Assembly (NCBI GenBank): GCA_044892525.1
Contig: CM097885.1
Span: 235,724,001-235,788,000, forward strand
Length of the DNA stretch: 64,000 nt
Origin: Schmidtea polychroa
Taxonomy: Eukaryota
Direction: 5' to 3'
In this document: positions 22,903 through 36,330 of the stretch, in pieces
Position numbering within the stretch: position 1 is the first letter of the stretch
Layout of the letters: every line of letters starts with the position of its first letter
Position numbers and translations under genes: made by a program
The notes under the pieces: generated by a model
Told to the model about the DNA's origin: nothing
The model's input: the letters and a program-made list of their open reading frames with translations, nothing else
Database searches by the model: none

Positions 22903-23680
22903 TCATGGTACACAGTCACAATCAAATAAATACTCATCATCATCATCTAACTTAAGACCTTTATACTTTAATACAATTATTCCATCATTGCTCATAATTT
23001 CTGCTGCTCTCCGTCGTATTTTACTCACTTTCGTACACCAATGCTCGTTTGTACATTCTACTCCTTGATCATTTATTTTTAACATTACTATGAATGGCTC
23101 AATATAAACTCCTTCTTCTCTAAATTCTTGTCCAAATTTTCGAATAAGCGCTTTTATCATTTCACTATATTCATTGTTATAAGTCTGACACAAACTAAAA
23201 TTTTTAATTTATCTTCCAATTCAAGTTCTAAATTTATAATATTAATTAATTTATCAGTAATAACATCTGTATATCCCTTGATCAATACTTCATTTAATTC
23301 AAATTTAATTTTATCGACATTATATTTGACTGGTTTCTCATTGGCAATCATGCTCACTATTTGTATCTCATTTTCAACACAATCTACTAAAATTTCGTCG
23401 TCTTCCAACACTCGGCCCATAAATCTAAGTTCTACTACCCAAACTTCACACTTGTGCATTATTTCTCTTTTTAGCTCATGCACTTTCTCGTATGTTTCAA
23501 TTTGATAATCGGATTTGGTGCTATCTAATGCATTTGGTTTGATGAATATTGGATCTAACCTTTTAATTTTCCGTAGAGATTGGCCAAATTCTTTCATAAA
23601 ATTTTCGAATACCTTTCACTTTTCCACACTTGCTGCATAACACTCTGCACAAAGTTTAATAACGGTTTTAAGTTTCAATA
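22903..23680 (-). pseudogene. Unknown ORF fragments 3' of the BEL pol end
   Basis: Overlapping ORFs 23157..23597 and 22903..23193 look like one frameshifted protein (LCAECY...; FDCDC). No family recognised. Confidence 0.3.
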
Positions 23681-23682
23681 TC

Positions 23683-26600
23683 TCAATATCTCAATATCTC
23701 CTTTTCTTTACATCTAGTTATCATCACACATAGTTTTTTTTCTTCTCCAGGAATCGCTTCAATTACCCTCCCCATTGGCCACTGCAACTGCCCATTATGC
23801 CGCATTTTCAGGAATTTATTGATTCGCTCTATTTCCCGTGTCAGTTTATCCATTTCCCCCTTCATTTCCTGCATTTCCTTCGCCATCCTATCACTGTCAG
23901 CCTTCACCTGGTGAATGATGTGCACATTTCCATTCAATTCTTGACATTTTCTGTCGACAATTTTCATTTGCTGTTCTAATTCCAACTGATTGATAGATTC
24001 AATTTGCTCATTTATCGATTTGACCGTATAATTTCTGCACCTGAAATTTATCTCGATATCCATCTGATCCAATTTGATCCACAAATTATTATTGCTATTT
24101 CTCATCATGATTTTCAGCTCTTGATTTTCTGGCTTTATCGCACTGATTTCATTTCTTAATGATTCAATTGATTCATCTTTTTTCATATCATTTATCTTTA
24201 GCTCATTCATTTCCTTTCTCAATTCTTCGATCATTTCAATTAATATTTTATTGTGGTTGTCAATATTAGAGATGGAATGCTCATTCAATTTATCCTGATA
24301 CTTAGTTCGTAAATCTTTCTTTTCAAGCCTTTTAGCTAAACTTCGCAGCCGACTTTCTGCCATTTTATCACTATTGGGCAAGATGTTGGTGACTCTTTCC
24401 ATGGAACTTTTACCTCGAAATTTCCGTCTATTTTTATCATCTCAGATTTTGTTTTCTCATAAATCAACTGGTCTTTTGCTACAAATATATTTTCCTTTAA
24501 GCCACTTTCGTCAATATCCCAAAATCGTTCCATTTGTCTTTCCAAATCATCGCAATTACCAAAGAACTTTTTTATAAAATTGCTTTGATGATTCCAAGTT
24601 CTTCCCACTGAGGTTCTTCTAACACATGTCCAGCCAAGTGGAGTTAAACGGGCAATCGGTTCATCCAACTTACCACTGATTTCTTTGAGTGGTCGTTGAA
24701 GCGTTAAATAATCAGCCCCAATTAAAACTTCAACTGCCTGTCTTTCGTCTAGCATCGGAAAATGGATGCCCTTAAGGTGAGTCCACTTATGTTTTTCTCT
24801 CGCCCAAATTTTACCCTCATTTCTCCCGTGATATTTTCTACGGCCAGTGCATTGAAGTTCTTAGTTAATCGGTCGTCGTTACTAATTAACTTCATGGTCA
24901 CTGGAGTAGCCATCATTTGTTGTACATTACCGCCGATAACCCCTATCGGTGTCCTCTTTTCAACCCCTTTTAAACCAAGCTCCTTTAAAATTTTTAGATT
25001 GATGTAGCTTACTGAGCTTGCATCATCTAACAGTGCATTGACTTTTATTTTCTTGTTCCCATTTTCCAGGTAGATTGGAATTGTTCTTAAACTAAGGTAA
25101 GGTCTTAGGTTTTTCTCGTTCATTCCTTTCTAGGTCAACATCGTGTTGTTACCTTTTTCACTCCCATCACTGAGCTGTCTTTCATGTAATAATTCGTTGT
25201 GTCTTTGCTTACATTCGGTAACCTTGCAGAAAGATTCTTTACGACATTCCTTGACCATGTGATTTCTTTTGAAGCAATTCCTAAACAGTTTCTTTTCTTT
25301 GATGACTTTCTTCCTTTTTGAAATTGTGAGTTGCTTGAACTTGTCACATTGGTCCAGGTAATGTTGACCACCACATTGTACACACTCTAATCTATAAAGG
25401 TTAGAGTTATTCGACTGTATGACCGTTCCACTTTTAACTATGCCATCTGGTAGCCTTGTAAAATGCGTCCAGCCTCCTGGATAGAAGCTTTCTCTTCCTC
25501 TAGACACACCTTCTACTCTTGGCCCATCATAAGTCCTGGTGTTTGGTTGAAACCCATATACGACCTCGTCAGTAGATCTTAGGATCTCCGCTTTTTGTTG
25601 TATCCATCTTCTCAAATCCTCTATCGTCTCTCGCAATTCCTTTTCTATTTTGTCTTTCTTCTATTTATAAACAAGATTTGTGGTTAACATGCCCAAATAC
25701 TTTTGAAAAAGACATCCAGTCTTTAACTCGGATTCTTTCCCAGTGAATTTAAATCGAACGGTGATTGTTTCTAATAATCCAACAAATAAGTCTAAATCCT
25801 TCAAATCTCTTTCTCGAATTGGCCTGAACTTGTCCATCTCATCTAACAATGATAAATATTTCTTTCATCCCCACCATATCGCCTATCCAACTTCTCTTTT
25901 GCCATTTGATAGGCCTCTGCGAAATATCCTACATTTTCAATTAATTTTAAAGGCTCTCCGTGAAGGTACTTATGCAGGTAAAACATCTTTTCAATCTCAT
26001 CACCTTCCGCTTCGTCAACACACGCAATAAAAGCTGCTGTCCATGGTTTGTACTCTTTCATCTTGCCTTTAAAGACAGGTATTGTAATTTTTTGTAGACT
26101 TTCTAGTTTTCTTTTACGCACTGAATTATTTTTCTTGATTGTATCATCATTCTCATTTTCCTTCGCTTTCCTTTTCTTTCCATCAGTGCCCAATCATTTG
26201 ATGTTTTTCCTCGATCTCTTGCAGGCGATGTCCAATCTTTGCAATTTTTTACTAATCCCCTGATTCTTCATCTAGACTCTCCTTTTGATCTTCATATTCA
26301 TCCAACCATTCACTGACTTCCTTCCCATTTATATTATTGAGAATCTTGTTTCTCACTCTCGTTAATTTTCCTTTTTTCATTCTGTTTTTTCACAGTCCTT
26401 CTTCTAAAATCTCTTCGTCATTGCCACCACACAGCCTGAGTGACAAATGAAGTGTCGAACCTACTTGTATGCTATAGTCGTTCAATATTCTTTTATTTTC
26501 TAATTGCATTCCGGCGTAGACTAACGTTTGATAATTTTCCGGAATTCCTTCTTTGTTTTGAATTTTTTCTTTTACATTTTCAATCGTGTCATTCAATTCA

Positions 26601-26752
26601 ACGTCAAGAGTAATTGTCTTACTACTAGTAAGAGTTTTGATAAATATTTGCTTCCTACTTCTCAATCGAAACTCTTCTTCTTCCTCTATTCGATAACTAC
26701 AAGCCTCAAAACCCATTACTCCGCTCACCCTCAACCTTGACTTAGCTCGCAA
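23683..26752 (-). mobile_element. Internally deleted BEL/Pao LTR retrotransposon
   Basis: DUF1759-like gag (IPVFKG...YLHKYLHGEP...KLDRRYG). BEL Zn knuckles (CVQCGGQHYLDQC...NCFKRNHMVKEC...CKQRHNELLH). Protease ALLDDAS, VLIGAD, LTPLGW and FWDID. LPNSDKMAESRL. DUF5641-like WPMGRVIEAIPG. Confidence 0.92.
26423..26653 (-). pseudogene. Ubiquitin domain in frame with BEL gag N-terminus
   Basis: [16 protein letters not shown]...[12 protein letters not shown], 52/76 identical to canonical ubiquitin by manual count. Confidence 0.92.
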
Positions 26753-26781
26753 AAACGCTGAGCTTTTTATTTTATTTTTAT

Positions 26782-27459
26782 TTAAACAGTTCCCGCTTTA
26801 GAAGAGTGCTGGGGCCCATAGCAGCACTTTTTCACACTCGATAAAGAAGAGAGGATGGTTAATTTTACATATATAACTTCAAAATAAAATGAAAATAAAT
26901 GAAAATAGTTTAAAGAAAACCATAATTCACCATTGATTAGCCAGGGCTGTCTCCACTGCTCCATTGGTGCGTAGCCCCCTGAAGGAAACCACGCTCTGCT
27001 ACCATGTTTAAATGTCGAACGGAACATGTTGGCTCTGATAAACTCGCTCTTGTATTGAGCATCATCTTCTTTCGAAGCATCAGCTAAAAGCCTTTGACTT
27101 GATTCCTCAAATAGTAATAACTCATGTTCGGGGATAACGGCAAGCATAATGACCAATTTATAGAGATTCGTGTCCAAATTTCCATGTGTCTGTTCCAGTT
27201 TTATTGTTCGAATATATAGAAATTCATATTTGGATAATGGATCAACTATCCGCTTAAAGTCAATCATTTCTGAACCTTCAACTGATTTGAATTTATTCAA
27301 CTTTATTTGATCAAGATTTAATTTCCATACGATTACATAATCACATAAATCCACACTTCCAAGGAATGAGTTAGTTTAGTTGATTAATTTCGTTATTGAT
27401 TCTGAATGTCCATATAATATATCACTCTGCTTGCCATCTTCTAAACTCCATACAAACAT
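26782..27459 (-). pseudogene. WD40-like repeat fragment fused to an unknown ~190-aa ORF
   Basis: In-frame extension above ORF 26782..27354 reads MFVWSLEDGKQSDILYGHSESITKLIN*TNSFLGSVDLCDYVIVWKL, a GH...W pattern. Confidence 0.45.
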
Positions 27460-27719
27460 AATATAATTTTCCATTTTGAAATTAATAAACGAATTTTTAA
27501 AAACTTTGTATTTTCAAAAACAATCACAAAACTTACCAAATTTAAAGAACTGATATAAATCCAAAAAAATAAAACTTGACATAAATCCTAAAATTGAAAA
27601 AACTGAAATCCAAAACTGTGATAACAACTCGACAATTGTCCGCGTCTGTGTGCGCACACAAATAAATCCAATGTCAAAGTAAAAAACGCACACAGACGCG
27701 AGACATAAACTGATAATTC

Positions 27720-28427
27720 AAAACTATTTCCTGATTCCCAATTGTCTTGGGTTGGGGTTATTGATCTCTCTCTTTGTACTGGAATTATCGCAAATACCTC
27801 AGATTTATTTTTAGAGCTCTTTAGATTCAATTCAATTTTCATAGCCTTTTTTACTAGTTCATCAAAATTGTCATAGTCTACAATTGCCGCCTTTATTTCT
27901 TTATTTACTCCTGACAAAAATTGGTCTTGAATCAGCTCCTGCATCTGTTTGGCTAATCCTGGTTGTCTTGAATCTTCTTCATAGGATTTGCTAGCAAGGG
28001 TTGATAAGTGATACGCAAATTCGCTCACTGTTTCATTTGGATTTTGGACTCTATTATAAAATTTTTGATGCATTAATCTCTTAATATCTCCTTCAATAAG
28101 TTTAACAACCAGTGCATCTTTAAACTTGGCCCAATCATTGGCGATTGTTTTCCTGTCAATTTGTTGCCAAACCTCTCTAGCTGCCCCTTTAAGATATAAG
28201 GGTAATCTTTGAATCATGATTGCTTGAGACCATCCATAAGCCGTTGCATACATATAGTAATCGCTCATAAAATCAACAAAAATAACTGGATCTCCTCCAT
28301 ATTGCTCTACTGCCAATCTTTGACAACTGGCAAAATCATTATTTTCTTTAACAACTGAAACTGGCAAATCTTCACTGCTCATTATCGCTTCCTTTTTATT
28401 CTTACTACGAAAATAATATCGATTCAC
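27720..28427 (-). pseudogene. Ty3/gypsy gag (capsid domain), 3'-truncated
   Basis: YGGDP, YGWSQ, LPLYLKGAAREVW, RVQNPNETVSEFAYHL and DQFLSGV. Lies downstream of the LTR and PBS. Confidence 0.85.
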
Positions 28428-30721: not shown

Positions 30722-32665
30722 CTTTAAGGTATGTTGATTGATTTTCTAAAGTTTTCAGTTCAGCTCTATTTAATAGTGCTACTTTCATTTTCACGGGTTC
30801 ATCCATGGTGGGTCATAAATTTTGTTTTCTCTCAAAAATGATTTAAAAGATAGACGCCATCATAGAAAACACCATTGGATAGAGCGCACAAAATTATAGA
30901 CACACCAAGATGTAACCATAAATGTTTAAGAACTTTTATATTAGAAGAAATTGTAAGAGTTCTTTGTTAAATGGTGCTAGCCGAATTTTTGAGAAGTCGT
31001 TGTCTCAAAATACTAAGGGTAACAGAAAAAATATTTTGAAAAAAAATATTATGTAAAAAAATAATTAGAAAATCTTTCAATTAAAGTTTGACTTATTTAT
31101 AATGACTCCATGACTTTGATAAATGACATAGTTGAATTTTTGCAAAAAAAATTTCTAGGGTAAAGGTCTTTGTTATAACATAACCGAATTAAAAAAGATC
31201 ATACTTTTCACATGATACCAACTTCAAAAACGTGTCTGAAAACATGAGTCATAACAAAGAGCATGACACATTAAAATTATTGCTGACTTATTCCGCGTCT
31301 AATGAATTATTACTCCGATGAATCATATTTTCGAAAGCCAATCAGAACGCTATGTGCTGGATAACTCACATCTATCTACTGGTTTATATTTTTCACTGAT
31401 ATTTTCATTTCTGTAATGCTTAAAAAAGTCTTTTAATTAATGATCAGTTCAACTTTTGTTTCATTTTAATTAAATATTTTTGTCAGAATAAATATATTTT
31501 TTTTGGTTTTACTGATAGCTAATTTTGAGAAGCCAATTTCATATAAGTATGGTTAACAAAAGGTTGAATTAATATTATAGTTTATTGAAGTTTTATTATA
31601 AAAATTAAACATGAAACACAAATCAGAACATTTAATTTATTTAAAAGTTTTTCAATCCCATTATTATAATTATATTTATTATAACTTCCCGAAAAAATTA
31701 CCTATTGGGATCGTAACATATATATATCTGCACAGGGAATGTATTATCTAAAATTAAAATAAAACCAATTAATATATAATTAACGAAACAAAACAACTAT
31801 ATTATTAATTCAAAAAACAATAAGATTATTCATTAATAATAAAAAAAACTGTATACATTAATTCAACTGCATATAATAATAGAAAAACTAGGAACATAGT
31901 CCGATACAAATTTATTAATTATTTTGTAAAGTGTTATTTATTACTCACCTGAATCAATTTTAATAACTCCACTGTATCACCTTCACTGGAAGTCTCGCTG
32001 ACATATTCATCATCATCATCAGAGAAAGAACTCAGACTATCAGTTACATATATATCAACAGTTTCTAGATCAGTTTCATTAGCTTCATTAAAATAAAATG
32101 TTAAATAAAAAAAGGAAATTTCAAAACACTAATGACACCTACCTATACTATGATATGCAAAAAATGTTATTCTAATATATTTTTAAACTTTTTCGATTTT
32201 TTTTAATTGAGATCAGATTTTAGATTTTTTTTGATTAGTTGTCAAATGAGAATTTTTTTATAATATTTGTTTATAATATTCAAAAATCGTTTATATTTTC
32301 GACCTCCTTGTCTATATTTACACTTGTCAAAATGATGTTAAACAAATATTTTTATTAATAGATAAAGTTTCACACCATTTTCATAATGGTTTTAGTAGTA
32401 GATAGAATAAAACTAGCATGAAACATAAATCCAATATGAAGTTCGAAATTAATTTCCAAAAAAAATCCAATTACTGTACCCGGGGTACTGTATTTGGACG
32501 AATGTTGCTATTAGTGTATCCGGGGTACTCTATTGGGGGATGTACTATATTCAGAACCTTACGGTATGTAGAATTATTTTTTGTGGAATTCCGCATTTAT
32601 TTACAATTGCGTCATCAAATGTATATTTATACAAAATACAAATAAGAATTTCAGTGAACCTACAA

Positions 32666-33385
32666 ATGAATTTTCCGTACAAAAGATTATCTGAAGAATA
32701 TTTCGAAGACCCCATTATGACTTGTGCAATTTGTCAAAAGAATATTAATCCCAATAATAGGTTACGACTTCCCAACTGCAATCATGAGTATCATTTTAAT
32801 TGTCTTTTCATTCATAATTTTGATAAACAATCTGTGTGTCCCATTTGTCATGAACCGTATAATAAAACGGAATTTATTGGAAATGAAAATATACATTCAA
32901 GAGTTGTAGTGAAAAATTACATTTATGACTATCGAATTGGTCTCAGCCATTATGTCAATGACGAACAAAAAGGATATTCTTATATGATCGGCCTGTACCG
33001 ACCAGTGTATCCATTTGTTTTTACAATCACCGTCAACAGTACCAAGCATAATTGGAATTTATATTGTAAAAGTAAATACAAAACTTTTGTCATCAGTCAG
33101 GAGAATGAAAAGATATTAAACTCATTGCAGAGCGATTCAAGAAATACATTATATGAATACAATTTGAAGCCTGTTGTAAAAGAAAAACAAATCAAAGAAA
33201 TCAATGCTCGTGTTCTCATGTCAGGAGCATTTGTTATATTGGGAGAAATTTTGTTAAATGACGGATTGAACGAAGCCGATATTCCCGGAATGTCAGAGAT
33301 GGAATCAGTGGGAAAGCATATTTCGTATCCTAAATTGGGTATTCTTCCACAAACAAGTTTATCAAAAATGAGACTGTTGAAATAA
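32666..33385 (+). CDS. RING-H2 finger protein plus unknown C-terminal domain, copy 1 (239 aa)
   Basis: CAIC...CNHEYHFNC...CPIC (C3H2C3) in an intact ORF. Confidence 0.85.
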   Translation: MNFPYKRLSEEYFEDPIMTCAICQKNINPNNRLRLPNCNHEYHFNCLFIHNFDKQSVCPICHEPYNKTEFIGNENIHSRVVVKNYIYDYRIGLSHYVNDEQKGYSYMIGLYRPVYPFVFTITVNSTKHNWNLYCKSKYKTFVISQENEKILNSLQSDSRNTLYEYNLKPVVKEKQIKEINARVLMSGAFVILGEILLNDGLNEADIPGMSEMESVGKHISYPKLGILPQTSLSKMRLLK

Positions 33386-35490: not shown

Positions 35491-36330
35491 TCCTTTGCTG
35501 ATATTCATGCCACTTGACATAATATTGTTTCCTTACCCACCTTAGTTTTCAATATCTTTTGTATTCTAAATACTGAAGGCGTGGGAATAACTTGTAGTTC
35601 ATAGAATTTACCATCAACTTCATTATTGTCACAATCTTTAATGACATACTTGACCGGATTTTGAGATGCATTAATTTTTGATATTTGGAAAACTTTATCA
35701 CTCCAATTGCTATCGAAATTCTTGATGAATGGTGAAGCAGATGTTTTAGATATTTGAACATAATCATTACACTATATTTCGGGTTTGTATTTTTTTTGAA
35801 TTATAAAAATTATCTTTTAGTGTTACATCAGCCGGTTTCAACCCTTTTAGACCCTTATGAGATGAATGATTGTAACTATAAATCAATTTCGGCAAAACAT
35901 CTATGCATGTTTTATTGCATTGATGCACGAAATACCTTTTAAGTGTATCTCTCAAAGTTCGGTTAAATCGTTCAACATGAGCTGATTTGAATTGTGAAAA
36001 CACCGAATAATGATTTATTCCCTTAATAATTTTTTTAACTTCGCTATTGTAAATACTCAAATATGTTTGTAAATTCCTTGGCCTTCCTCTTTTAAATATT
36101 ATTTTAATTGAAATCGGCATTCCATTTGCAGATTTTGTTTTGACTGGAATCGCACGAGCAAATCAACTGGAAACATCAATAAATGTCAAAATATACTTGT
36201 AGCATTTGTTAGCCTTTGAAAATGGTATAATTTCCATCAAATCCATTTGCCTCAAATAATTAATACCACGCGTTTTATATGGTCTTATGGGAAATCTTTT
36301 TAGCATTGGTTTGTTTAGGCTGTATGACAG
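35480..36330 (-). pseudogene. Polinton integrase with C-terminal chromodomain
   Basis: QMDL...YKYILTFIDV, KSAHVERFNRTL, YNHSSHKGL..KPADV, PVKYVIKD..GKFY and FRIQKIL..QYYVKW, with stops and frameshifts. Confidence 0.85.

Follow-up and report, generated by a model that had tools for sequence, protein, structure and literature searches.

A ubiquitin domain that runs in frame into the Gag of a BEL/Pao retrotransposon, found in a stretch of 64,000 nucleotides from Schmidtea polychroa (the window), raises the questions of whether such a junction is a maintained feature of a family of elements and what a ubiquitin might do at the front of a retrotransposon polyprotein. The first-pass annotation of this locus had taken the ubiquitin to be a natural capture that heads the element, and had offered deubiquitinase processing, N-degron control or the recruitment of ESCRT as its possible uses.

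The ubiquitin-Gag junction in the window and in its family

The copy in the window (Table 1) is a dead, decayed and internally deleted member of a young BEL/Pao family with many copies. Its ubiquitin domain, which also matches ubiquitin in the PDB (E ~1e-24), is followed by ten in-frame residues, a stop codon and Gag-like sequence, with pieces of DUF1759, protease and DUF5641 beyond. The domain had been described as complete; it is without Met1 and has one extra codon. The lesions of this copy comprise a frameshift in the leader (where an in-frame ATG is present at 26716), frameshifts in gag and protease, and the loss of reverse transcriptase, RNase H and integrase, and no 3' LTR matching its 5' LTR was found. 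Its LTR type has 392 candidates in the same genome, the best 150 of which were scored. The peptide of its LTR open frame had no match in Pfam or PDB, and a host origin is presumed for it from the sister LTRs described below.

Table 1. Features of the BEL/Pao copy in the window
Feature	Position	Strand	Basis
5' LTR (~716 bp), of a high-copy LTR type	27005..27720	-	related LTRs match at 85-97%, with ends at 27005 and ~27720
Open frame within the LTR, reaching the primer site after 124 codons; passenger presumed to come from the host	27003..27375	-	ORF 26782-27375
18-nt primer-binding site, complementary to the 3' end of host tRNA-Met	26987..27004	-	motif at 3' end of ARAGORN tRNA-Met(CAT) genes
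Leader, primer site to ubiquitin; frameshifted here, open in young sisters	26654..26986	-	
Ubiquitin domain ending LRLCGG; GG at 26428-26423	26423..26653	-	PF00240, E 3e-22
Premature stop, not conserved in the family	26390..26392	-	3/80 covered copies
Gag of BEL type, with N-terminal helices, DUF1759 and zinc knuckles, then protease; interrupted by frameshifts and stops	24791..26422	-	
Pol remnant, stops short of reverse transcriptase	24277..24806	-	matches residues 986-1162 of P0001 (tblastn)
What is left of DUF5641, at the 3' end of pol; the preceding RT, RNase H and integrase are absent	23688..23784	-	

Several other frames lie in or near this copy. A coiled-coil-like frame occupies ~23790-24280 (minus strand), where reverse transcriptase, RNase H and integrase were lost. 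A Retrotrans_gag frame (PF03732; 27588-28436, minus strand) runs into the 5' LTR, and the BEL copy is nested inside a Gypsy-type element, the PF03732 gag frame of which it interrupts. Beyond the end of the BEL copy are two neighbouring stretches, 23160-23615 and 22906-23208 (minus strand), one of which gives a weak ubiquitin-family match (E 0.0015) and the other of which looks similar; they probably represent ubiquitin-like domains in tandem that belong to the Gypsy-type element around the BEL copy. Farther away are a RING finger in a 310-codon frame (32453-33385, plus strand) and a frame that looks integrase-like by eye and is without a Pfam match (35767-36162, minus strand).

The same genome holds 915 candidates for the ubiquitin domain, and the best 150 of them, all 82-100% identical, were scored. 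From these top 150 matches, 81 distinct places were drawn for a census of what we call family 1, 51 of them chosen partly for long frames. The ubiquitin reads on into Gag in 80 of the 81 copies, the GG is present in 77, and the next residue is N in all 81; the stop codon of the window copy recurs at the equivalent position in 3 of 80 covered copies, the window copy included. A one-off insertion is ruled out by the first of these counts, and a separate, conserved gag gene by the rarity of the stop and the continuity of the frame, so that neither of the two outcomes named beforehand as fatal to the fusion (sisters lacking the domain, or a conserved stop) was encountered. The earlier claims of a natural and fixed fusion with BEL Gag, of a retained di-Gly and of a secondary TGA are thus upheld. 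The claim that K48 and K63 had both been replaced holds for the second residue, which is V in 78 of the 81 copies and K in none, but not for the first, since K48 is present in 77 copies and the M at this position is private to the window copy. A single-sequence AlphaFold model of the junction reached a mean pLDDT of 50. The census confirms that the ubiquitin-Gag fusion is real and not a one-off event.

Sister copies, among them young ones with LTR pairs at least 99% identical, carry ubiquitin, Gag and Pol as one frame. An element that we designate L031, to which the window copy is 86.8% identical in DNA over 24282-26869, has an LTR pair 99.6% identical and a frame of 2189 codons with ubiquitin, DUF1759, RVT_1, Peptidase_A17 (E 5e-45), an integrase zinc domain and DUF5641, that is, a gag-pol with BEL-type domains and the order PR-RT-RH-IN of BEL/Pao elements. 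A non-autonomous form retains a frame of 1153 codons, and no env-like domain was found in the intact copies. With LTRs of 0.8-1.1 kb, a length of ~7.7 kb, a polypurine tract and a target duplication (a strict automatic test scored an exact 5-bp duplication for 18 of 35 young copies), these elements fit the BEL/Pao ranges of 0.2-1.2 kb for LTRs and 4-10 kb for genomes. Their 18-nt primer site matches tRNA-Met(CAT) and not the tRNA-Arg or tRNA-Gly given for BEL/Pao in the ICTV profile (PMC8742986), which we treat as a variant trait and no ground for exclusion from the group. The primer motif matches exactly 1228 times in the genome, where a tandem tRNA-Met array with a 454-bp period is located at ~79.33-79.39 Mb (L242; G000:C1). 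At three loci (L039, L047 and L118), elements stand in head-to-tail arrays with LTRs in common.

A second family (family 2) has two ubiquitin units per element. The first of these shares 99.1% DNA identity with a unit of a host polyubiquitin gene, which implies a recent recapture of ubiquitin. Among 40 further ubiquitin loci, which resembled family 2, no second, unrelated superfamily bearing ubiquitin was found.

Host mRNA fragments in the LTRs and the frame that runs through them

The ubiquitin does not head the element, as had been thought, because LTR-encoded mosaics of host mRNA and a leader come before it. The LTRs carry pieces of host coding sequence (CCT3, SNF8, proteasome alpha, Rab and DUSP) in the sense orientation and in frame into ubiquitin. 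Their peptides form 34 clusters, some of which are truncated versions of others, and in a Pfam scan 14 of 20 LTR peptides matched host families (proteasome alpha, EAP30, CCT, Rab, LIM, dual-specificity phosphatase and cofilin). Counted by LTR type, host matches appear in the ubiquitin frame of 13 of 18, as against one match, driven by a repeat, for 118 ORFs taken from the remaining five frames in 18 LTR types. The passengers are common to both families, and they are freely deleted and reshuffled among LTRs.

The CCT3 piece is a close match to its host gene (98.9% identity), as are the SNF8 pieces to theirs (94-97%). In the LTR of L031, four exons of a host gene (L239) are joined without the three introns, one of which was checked and is a GT..AG intron of 1656 nt. 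Ahead of these exons, a different host gene, L240, which we take to be RPB6, has contributed its 5' UTR and start codon, and the junction falls at an in-frame short match common to both host genes. Pieces that match host genes and are without their introns are the hallmark of mRNA transduction, and the LTR passengers are thus spliced, mRNA-derived host fragments. Two further LTR ends (L004 and L003) hold pieces that, judged by eye, we presume to resemble eIF1 and a RING-H2 finger. The host source gene for proteasome alpha was not found among the LTR copies, nor was that for DUSP. The genome gives 1376 proteasome-family and 328 EAP30 candidates, and these are apparently for the most part LTR passengers. 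Hundreds of LTR copies that look like expanded proteasome, Rab and phosphatase gene families represent a hazard for annotation and for counts of gene families.

In young copies the ubiquitin frame begins inside the 5' LTR and passes the primer site. This frame was followed in 55 of 80 fetched copies, those with at least 400 open codons downstream, a set that was chosen partly for long frames and whose copies are not independent of one another. The leader, which is AT-rich and 125 codons long, is open in 44 of the 55 and broken in 11, including 3 of the 31 youngest copies. In these 31, the two LTRs of which share 99% identity or more, the leader is open in 28, and 27 have in addition at least 50 open codons in the LTR. 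Counted from the LTR end, 36 of the 55 copies have at least 100 open codons in the ubiquitin frame, compared with 6 for the other sense frames, and shuffles of the leader plus 100 codons gave no open frame in 20000 trials for each of 4 copies. The leader of young copies varies in length, and 13 of 19 distinct lengths retain one frame. A leader that is spliced out is disfavoured by its open frame. In 49 of the 55 copies an AATAAA motif is located at a distance of 26-53 nt from the LTR end, which suggests that the captures lie in a long R region. In four runs presumed to be RNA, contigs account for 24-30 of 30 bins, and in two of these runs the L239 piece lies within longer contigs, although such contigs show no start, strand or level.

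The ratio of nonsynonymous to synonymous change (N/S, counted as distinct changes among copies) differs along this frame. It is 0.96-1.66 in five of six passenger groups and 0.47 in the sixth, 0.93 in the leader, and 0.34-0.44 in Gag. Measurement of dN/dS had been proposed as a check on the fusion; by N/S, the Gag-proximal ubiquitin is constrained (0.36 and 0.40), with 0.73 for the recent extra unit. Passengers thus change mostly like neutral sequence, and ubiquitin is constrained like Gag. Ratios near 1 in most groups, taken with the open frames, indicate that a passenger must stay open and that its residues seem to be free. The differences between LTR pieces and their host genes are mostly synonymous (5 to 0 for CCT3; dN/dS of ~0.2-0.4 for SNF8), and we tentatively read these as changes on the host side.

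Translation might instead start at an ATG just before ubiquitin, with ubiquitin as a folding or expression aid cut at GG and the LTR captures as untranslated camouflage or by-products. Family 1 would allow this, as it has an in-frame ATG 9-21 codons ahead of ubiquitin; the captured coding pieces were already open by origin, and the junction at a short match in L031 indicates that in-frame joins are possible without selection. The broken leaders, including those in the youngest copies, and the one passenger group with a low ratio likewise count against a long frame. A short start, however, leaves unexplained an AT-rich leader that changes neutrally and yet stays open where shuffled sequence does not, the retention of one frame by most leader lengths, and the Gag frame shared by all recognisable passengers, and we consider it unlikely. 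A long frame that begins in the LTR remains the reading that we prefer.

The ubiquitin-bearing clade and a possible role for the ubiquitin

A search for homologs with ubiquitin plus Gag as the query was dominated by polyubiquitins. Among 108 long BEL relatives, five have the ubiquitin domain and another two are truncated directly ahead of a GG junction; five of 148 further representatives have it as well. In a tree of the Gag-protease region, from which ubiquitin was excluded (FastTree only, midpoint root, built without four short rows and two near-duplicates), the 11 rows with ubiquitin, of 108, all fall on one side of a branch with a support of 99, and by this sequence comparison the ubiquitin-bearing BEL elements form one clade. 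The distant members were compared as protein sequences, in which their LTRs are not represented as DNA. Upstream of their ubiquitin are pieces of kinesin and Sec24 in one case and of HSP90 in another, together with DnaJ-like and Ulp1-like pieces recognised by eye; named animal proteins reach at most 54% identity to the Sec24 passenger of P0126. P0127, another distant member, has an extra, near-canonical partial ubiquitin ahead of its diverged unit, like family 2.

Twelve lineages, aligned without gaps and identical to host ubiquitin at 22-62 of 76 positions, differ in the parts of the domain that they retain. All of them have T66, L73, G75 and G76, and 11 of the 12 have L71; K48 is kept in 10, R72 in 6, K63 in 5, R74 in 4, I44 in 3 and V70 in 2, and L8 in 6 of 11 covered. 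GG is followed by S, M, G, N or Q and never by Pro, with S, M or G in 10 of the 12. The domain therefore has the end of a ubiquitin fusion precursor, L-x-L-x-G-G followed by a residue other than Pro, and not the L8/I44/V70 patch of a late-domain substitute. L73, G75 and G76 belong to the ubiquitin tail that is read by deubiquitinases. Retention of this tail with loss of the patch makes a linker that is cut off the best reading, and the deubiquitinase processing first proposed for this locus is, on such sequence grounds, the most plausible of its suggested uses. The limited retention of R74 and R72 may mean that cleavage is slowed.

From this architecture, the spliced origin of the passengers, their frame, the pattern of selection and the clade, we infer how translation of the LTR, cleavage, the start and poly(A) sites and the route of capture might fit together. 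Transcription would likely start near the 5' end of the LTR and polyadenylation would likely occur near its 3' end, which would make the R region long. Reverse transcriptase would likely switch to co-packaged host mRNAs at short matches, which would place spliced sense fragments in both LTRs. Only captures that keep the frame would still yield Gag and spread, and the passenger peptide would likely be disposable. Ubiquitin would be the enabling step in that it would provide a fixed Gag N-terminus regardless of the sequence upstream, with host deubiquitinases likely cutting after Gly-Gly and releasing Gag from its variable front end. We regard it as probable that a host-mRNA mosaic in the LTR, the leader, ubiquitin and Gag (or Gag-Pol) are read in one frame in this way, with Gag likely freed by host deubiquitinases.

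Rather less likely than a short start is the idea that ubiquitin is retained on Gag and recruits ESCRT or proteasome factors, or that the residue exposed after GG sets the half-life of Gag. The frequent retention of K48 across lineages and the uniform N after GG in family 1 would be in keeping with these uses, and a fused ubiquitin can indeed substitute for late domains, as the annotation had stated; the engineered fusions, however, are C-terminal, without GG and dependent on L8 and I44 (PMC2958808). The scarcity of I44 and V70 weakens the case for ESCRT recruitment, and the differences between lineages in the residue after GG (N, Q, S, M or G) weaken that for N-degron control. The invariant GG, the predominance of S, M or G behind it and the failure to find an env-like domain in intact copies also count against a retained ubiquitin. 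We give slightly less credence still to functional decoys of the proteasome, chaperonin, ESCRT-II or Rab freed by ubiquitin cleavage, or to host mimicry against piRNA silencing, since the great abundance of proteasome-alpha pieces in both families and a plant review on donor-gene conflict as a limit to silencing (PMC13317346) would accord with them, whereas neutral ratios and free deletion and reshuffling argue against a protein function and leave room for mimicry at the RNA level.

To return to the cut-off linker, we suggest tentatively, as a broader proposal that we rate at slightly less than an even chance, that an old BEL/Pao clade uses captured ubiquitin in this role and has an LTR that is a continually rewritten, translated cassette of host mRNA. 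Template switching would then alter the 5' end and start codon and bring in host-like sequence that is unsafe for small-RNA silencing to target, while Gag-Pol would be unchanged. If this is true, it would explain how an LTR element can tolerate constant capture of host mRNA without losing Gag, and the LTRs would be a record of co-packaged mRNAs by which template switching and piRNA mimicry could be tested with existing types of data.

Relation to known systems

The nearest kin of these elements are the BEL/Pao LTR retrotransposons (Belpaoviridae), possibly in the Flow superfamily. The accounts of this group (PMC8742986; PMC3118150) describe the same single gag-pol frame, Peptidase_A17, DUF1759, DUF5641, 18-nt primer site and polypurine tract; the present clade differs in having ubiquitin before Gag and a coding LTR with mosaics of host mRNA, and the word "ubiquitin" is absent from the main text of PMC3118150. 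A full-text literature search found no description of this architecture, although Repbase, Dfam and subscription journals were outside the search and may hold such families. It is a real and clade-wide variant of BEL/Pao that is probably undescribed.

Each of the other comparisons shares a part of the arrangement. The giant Gypsy elements Burro and GYPSM1 have a ubiquitin- or SUMO-like motif in a retroelement polyprotein, but they belong to another superfamily and have this motif within the polyprotein, beyond Gag, and LTR mosaics are not mentioned in the available part of that report (PMC6431247). Engineered Gag-ubiquitin is likewise an in-line fusion, with the opposite pattern of position, GG and patch residues (PMC2958808). 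In LTR-mediated retroposition, or transduction of the Bs1 type, template switching at short matches gives internal retrocopies, and the resemblance extends to partial spliced mRNA pieces, several donors, short-match junctions and further rounds of copying; the pieces described there are internal chimeras, whereas those of the BEL clade are in both LTRs and in the Gag frame, and are compatible with a full gag-pol (PMC5131818).

The closest parallel for the ubiquitin itself is found in the cytopathogenic pestiviruses (BVDV Osloss, CP1 and CP Rit), in which host hydrolases cut at a captured cellular ubiquitin and thereby create the authentic N-terminus of a viral protein, and in which a truncated ubiquitin behind a host fragment still releases authentic NS3 (PMC8310069). 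Host sequence before ubiquitin and truncation at its N-terminus are features that the two systems share. The pestivirus inserts described in that source are sporadic events in an RNA virus, whereas the ubiquitin of the BEL clade is fixed, diverged, clade-wide and coupled to repeated capture in the LTR, and, if the cut-off linker is the right reading, it would be a fixed and heritable version of the ubiquitin processing known from those sporadic mutants.
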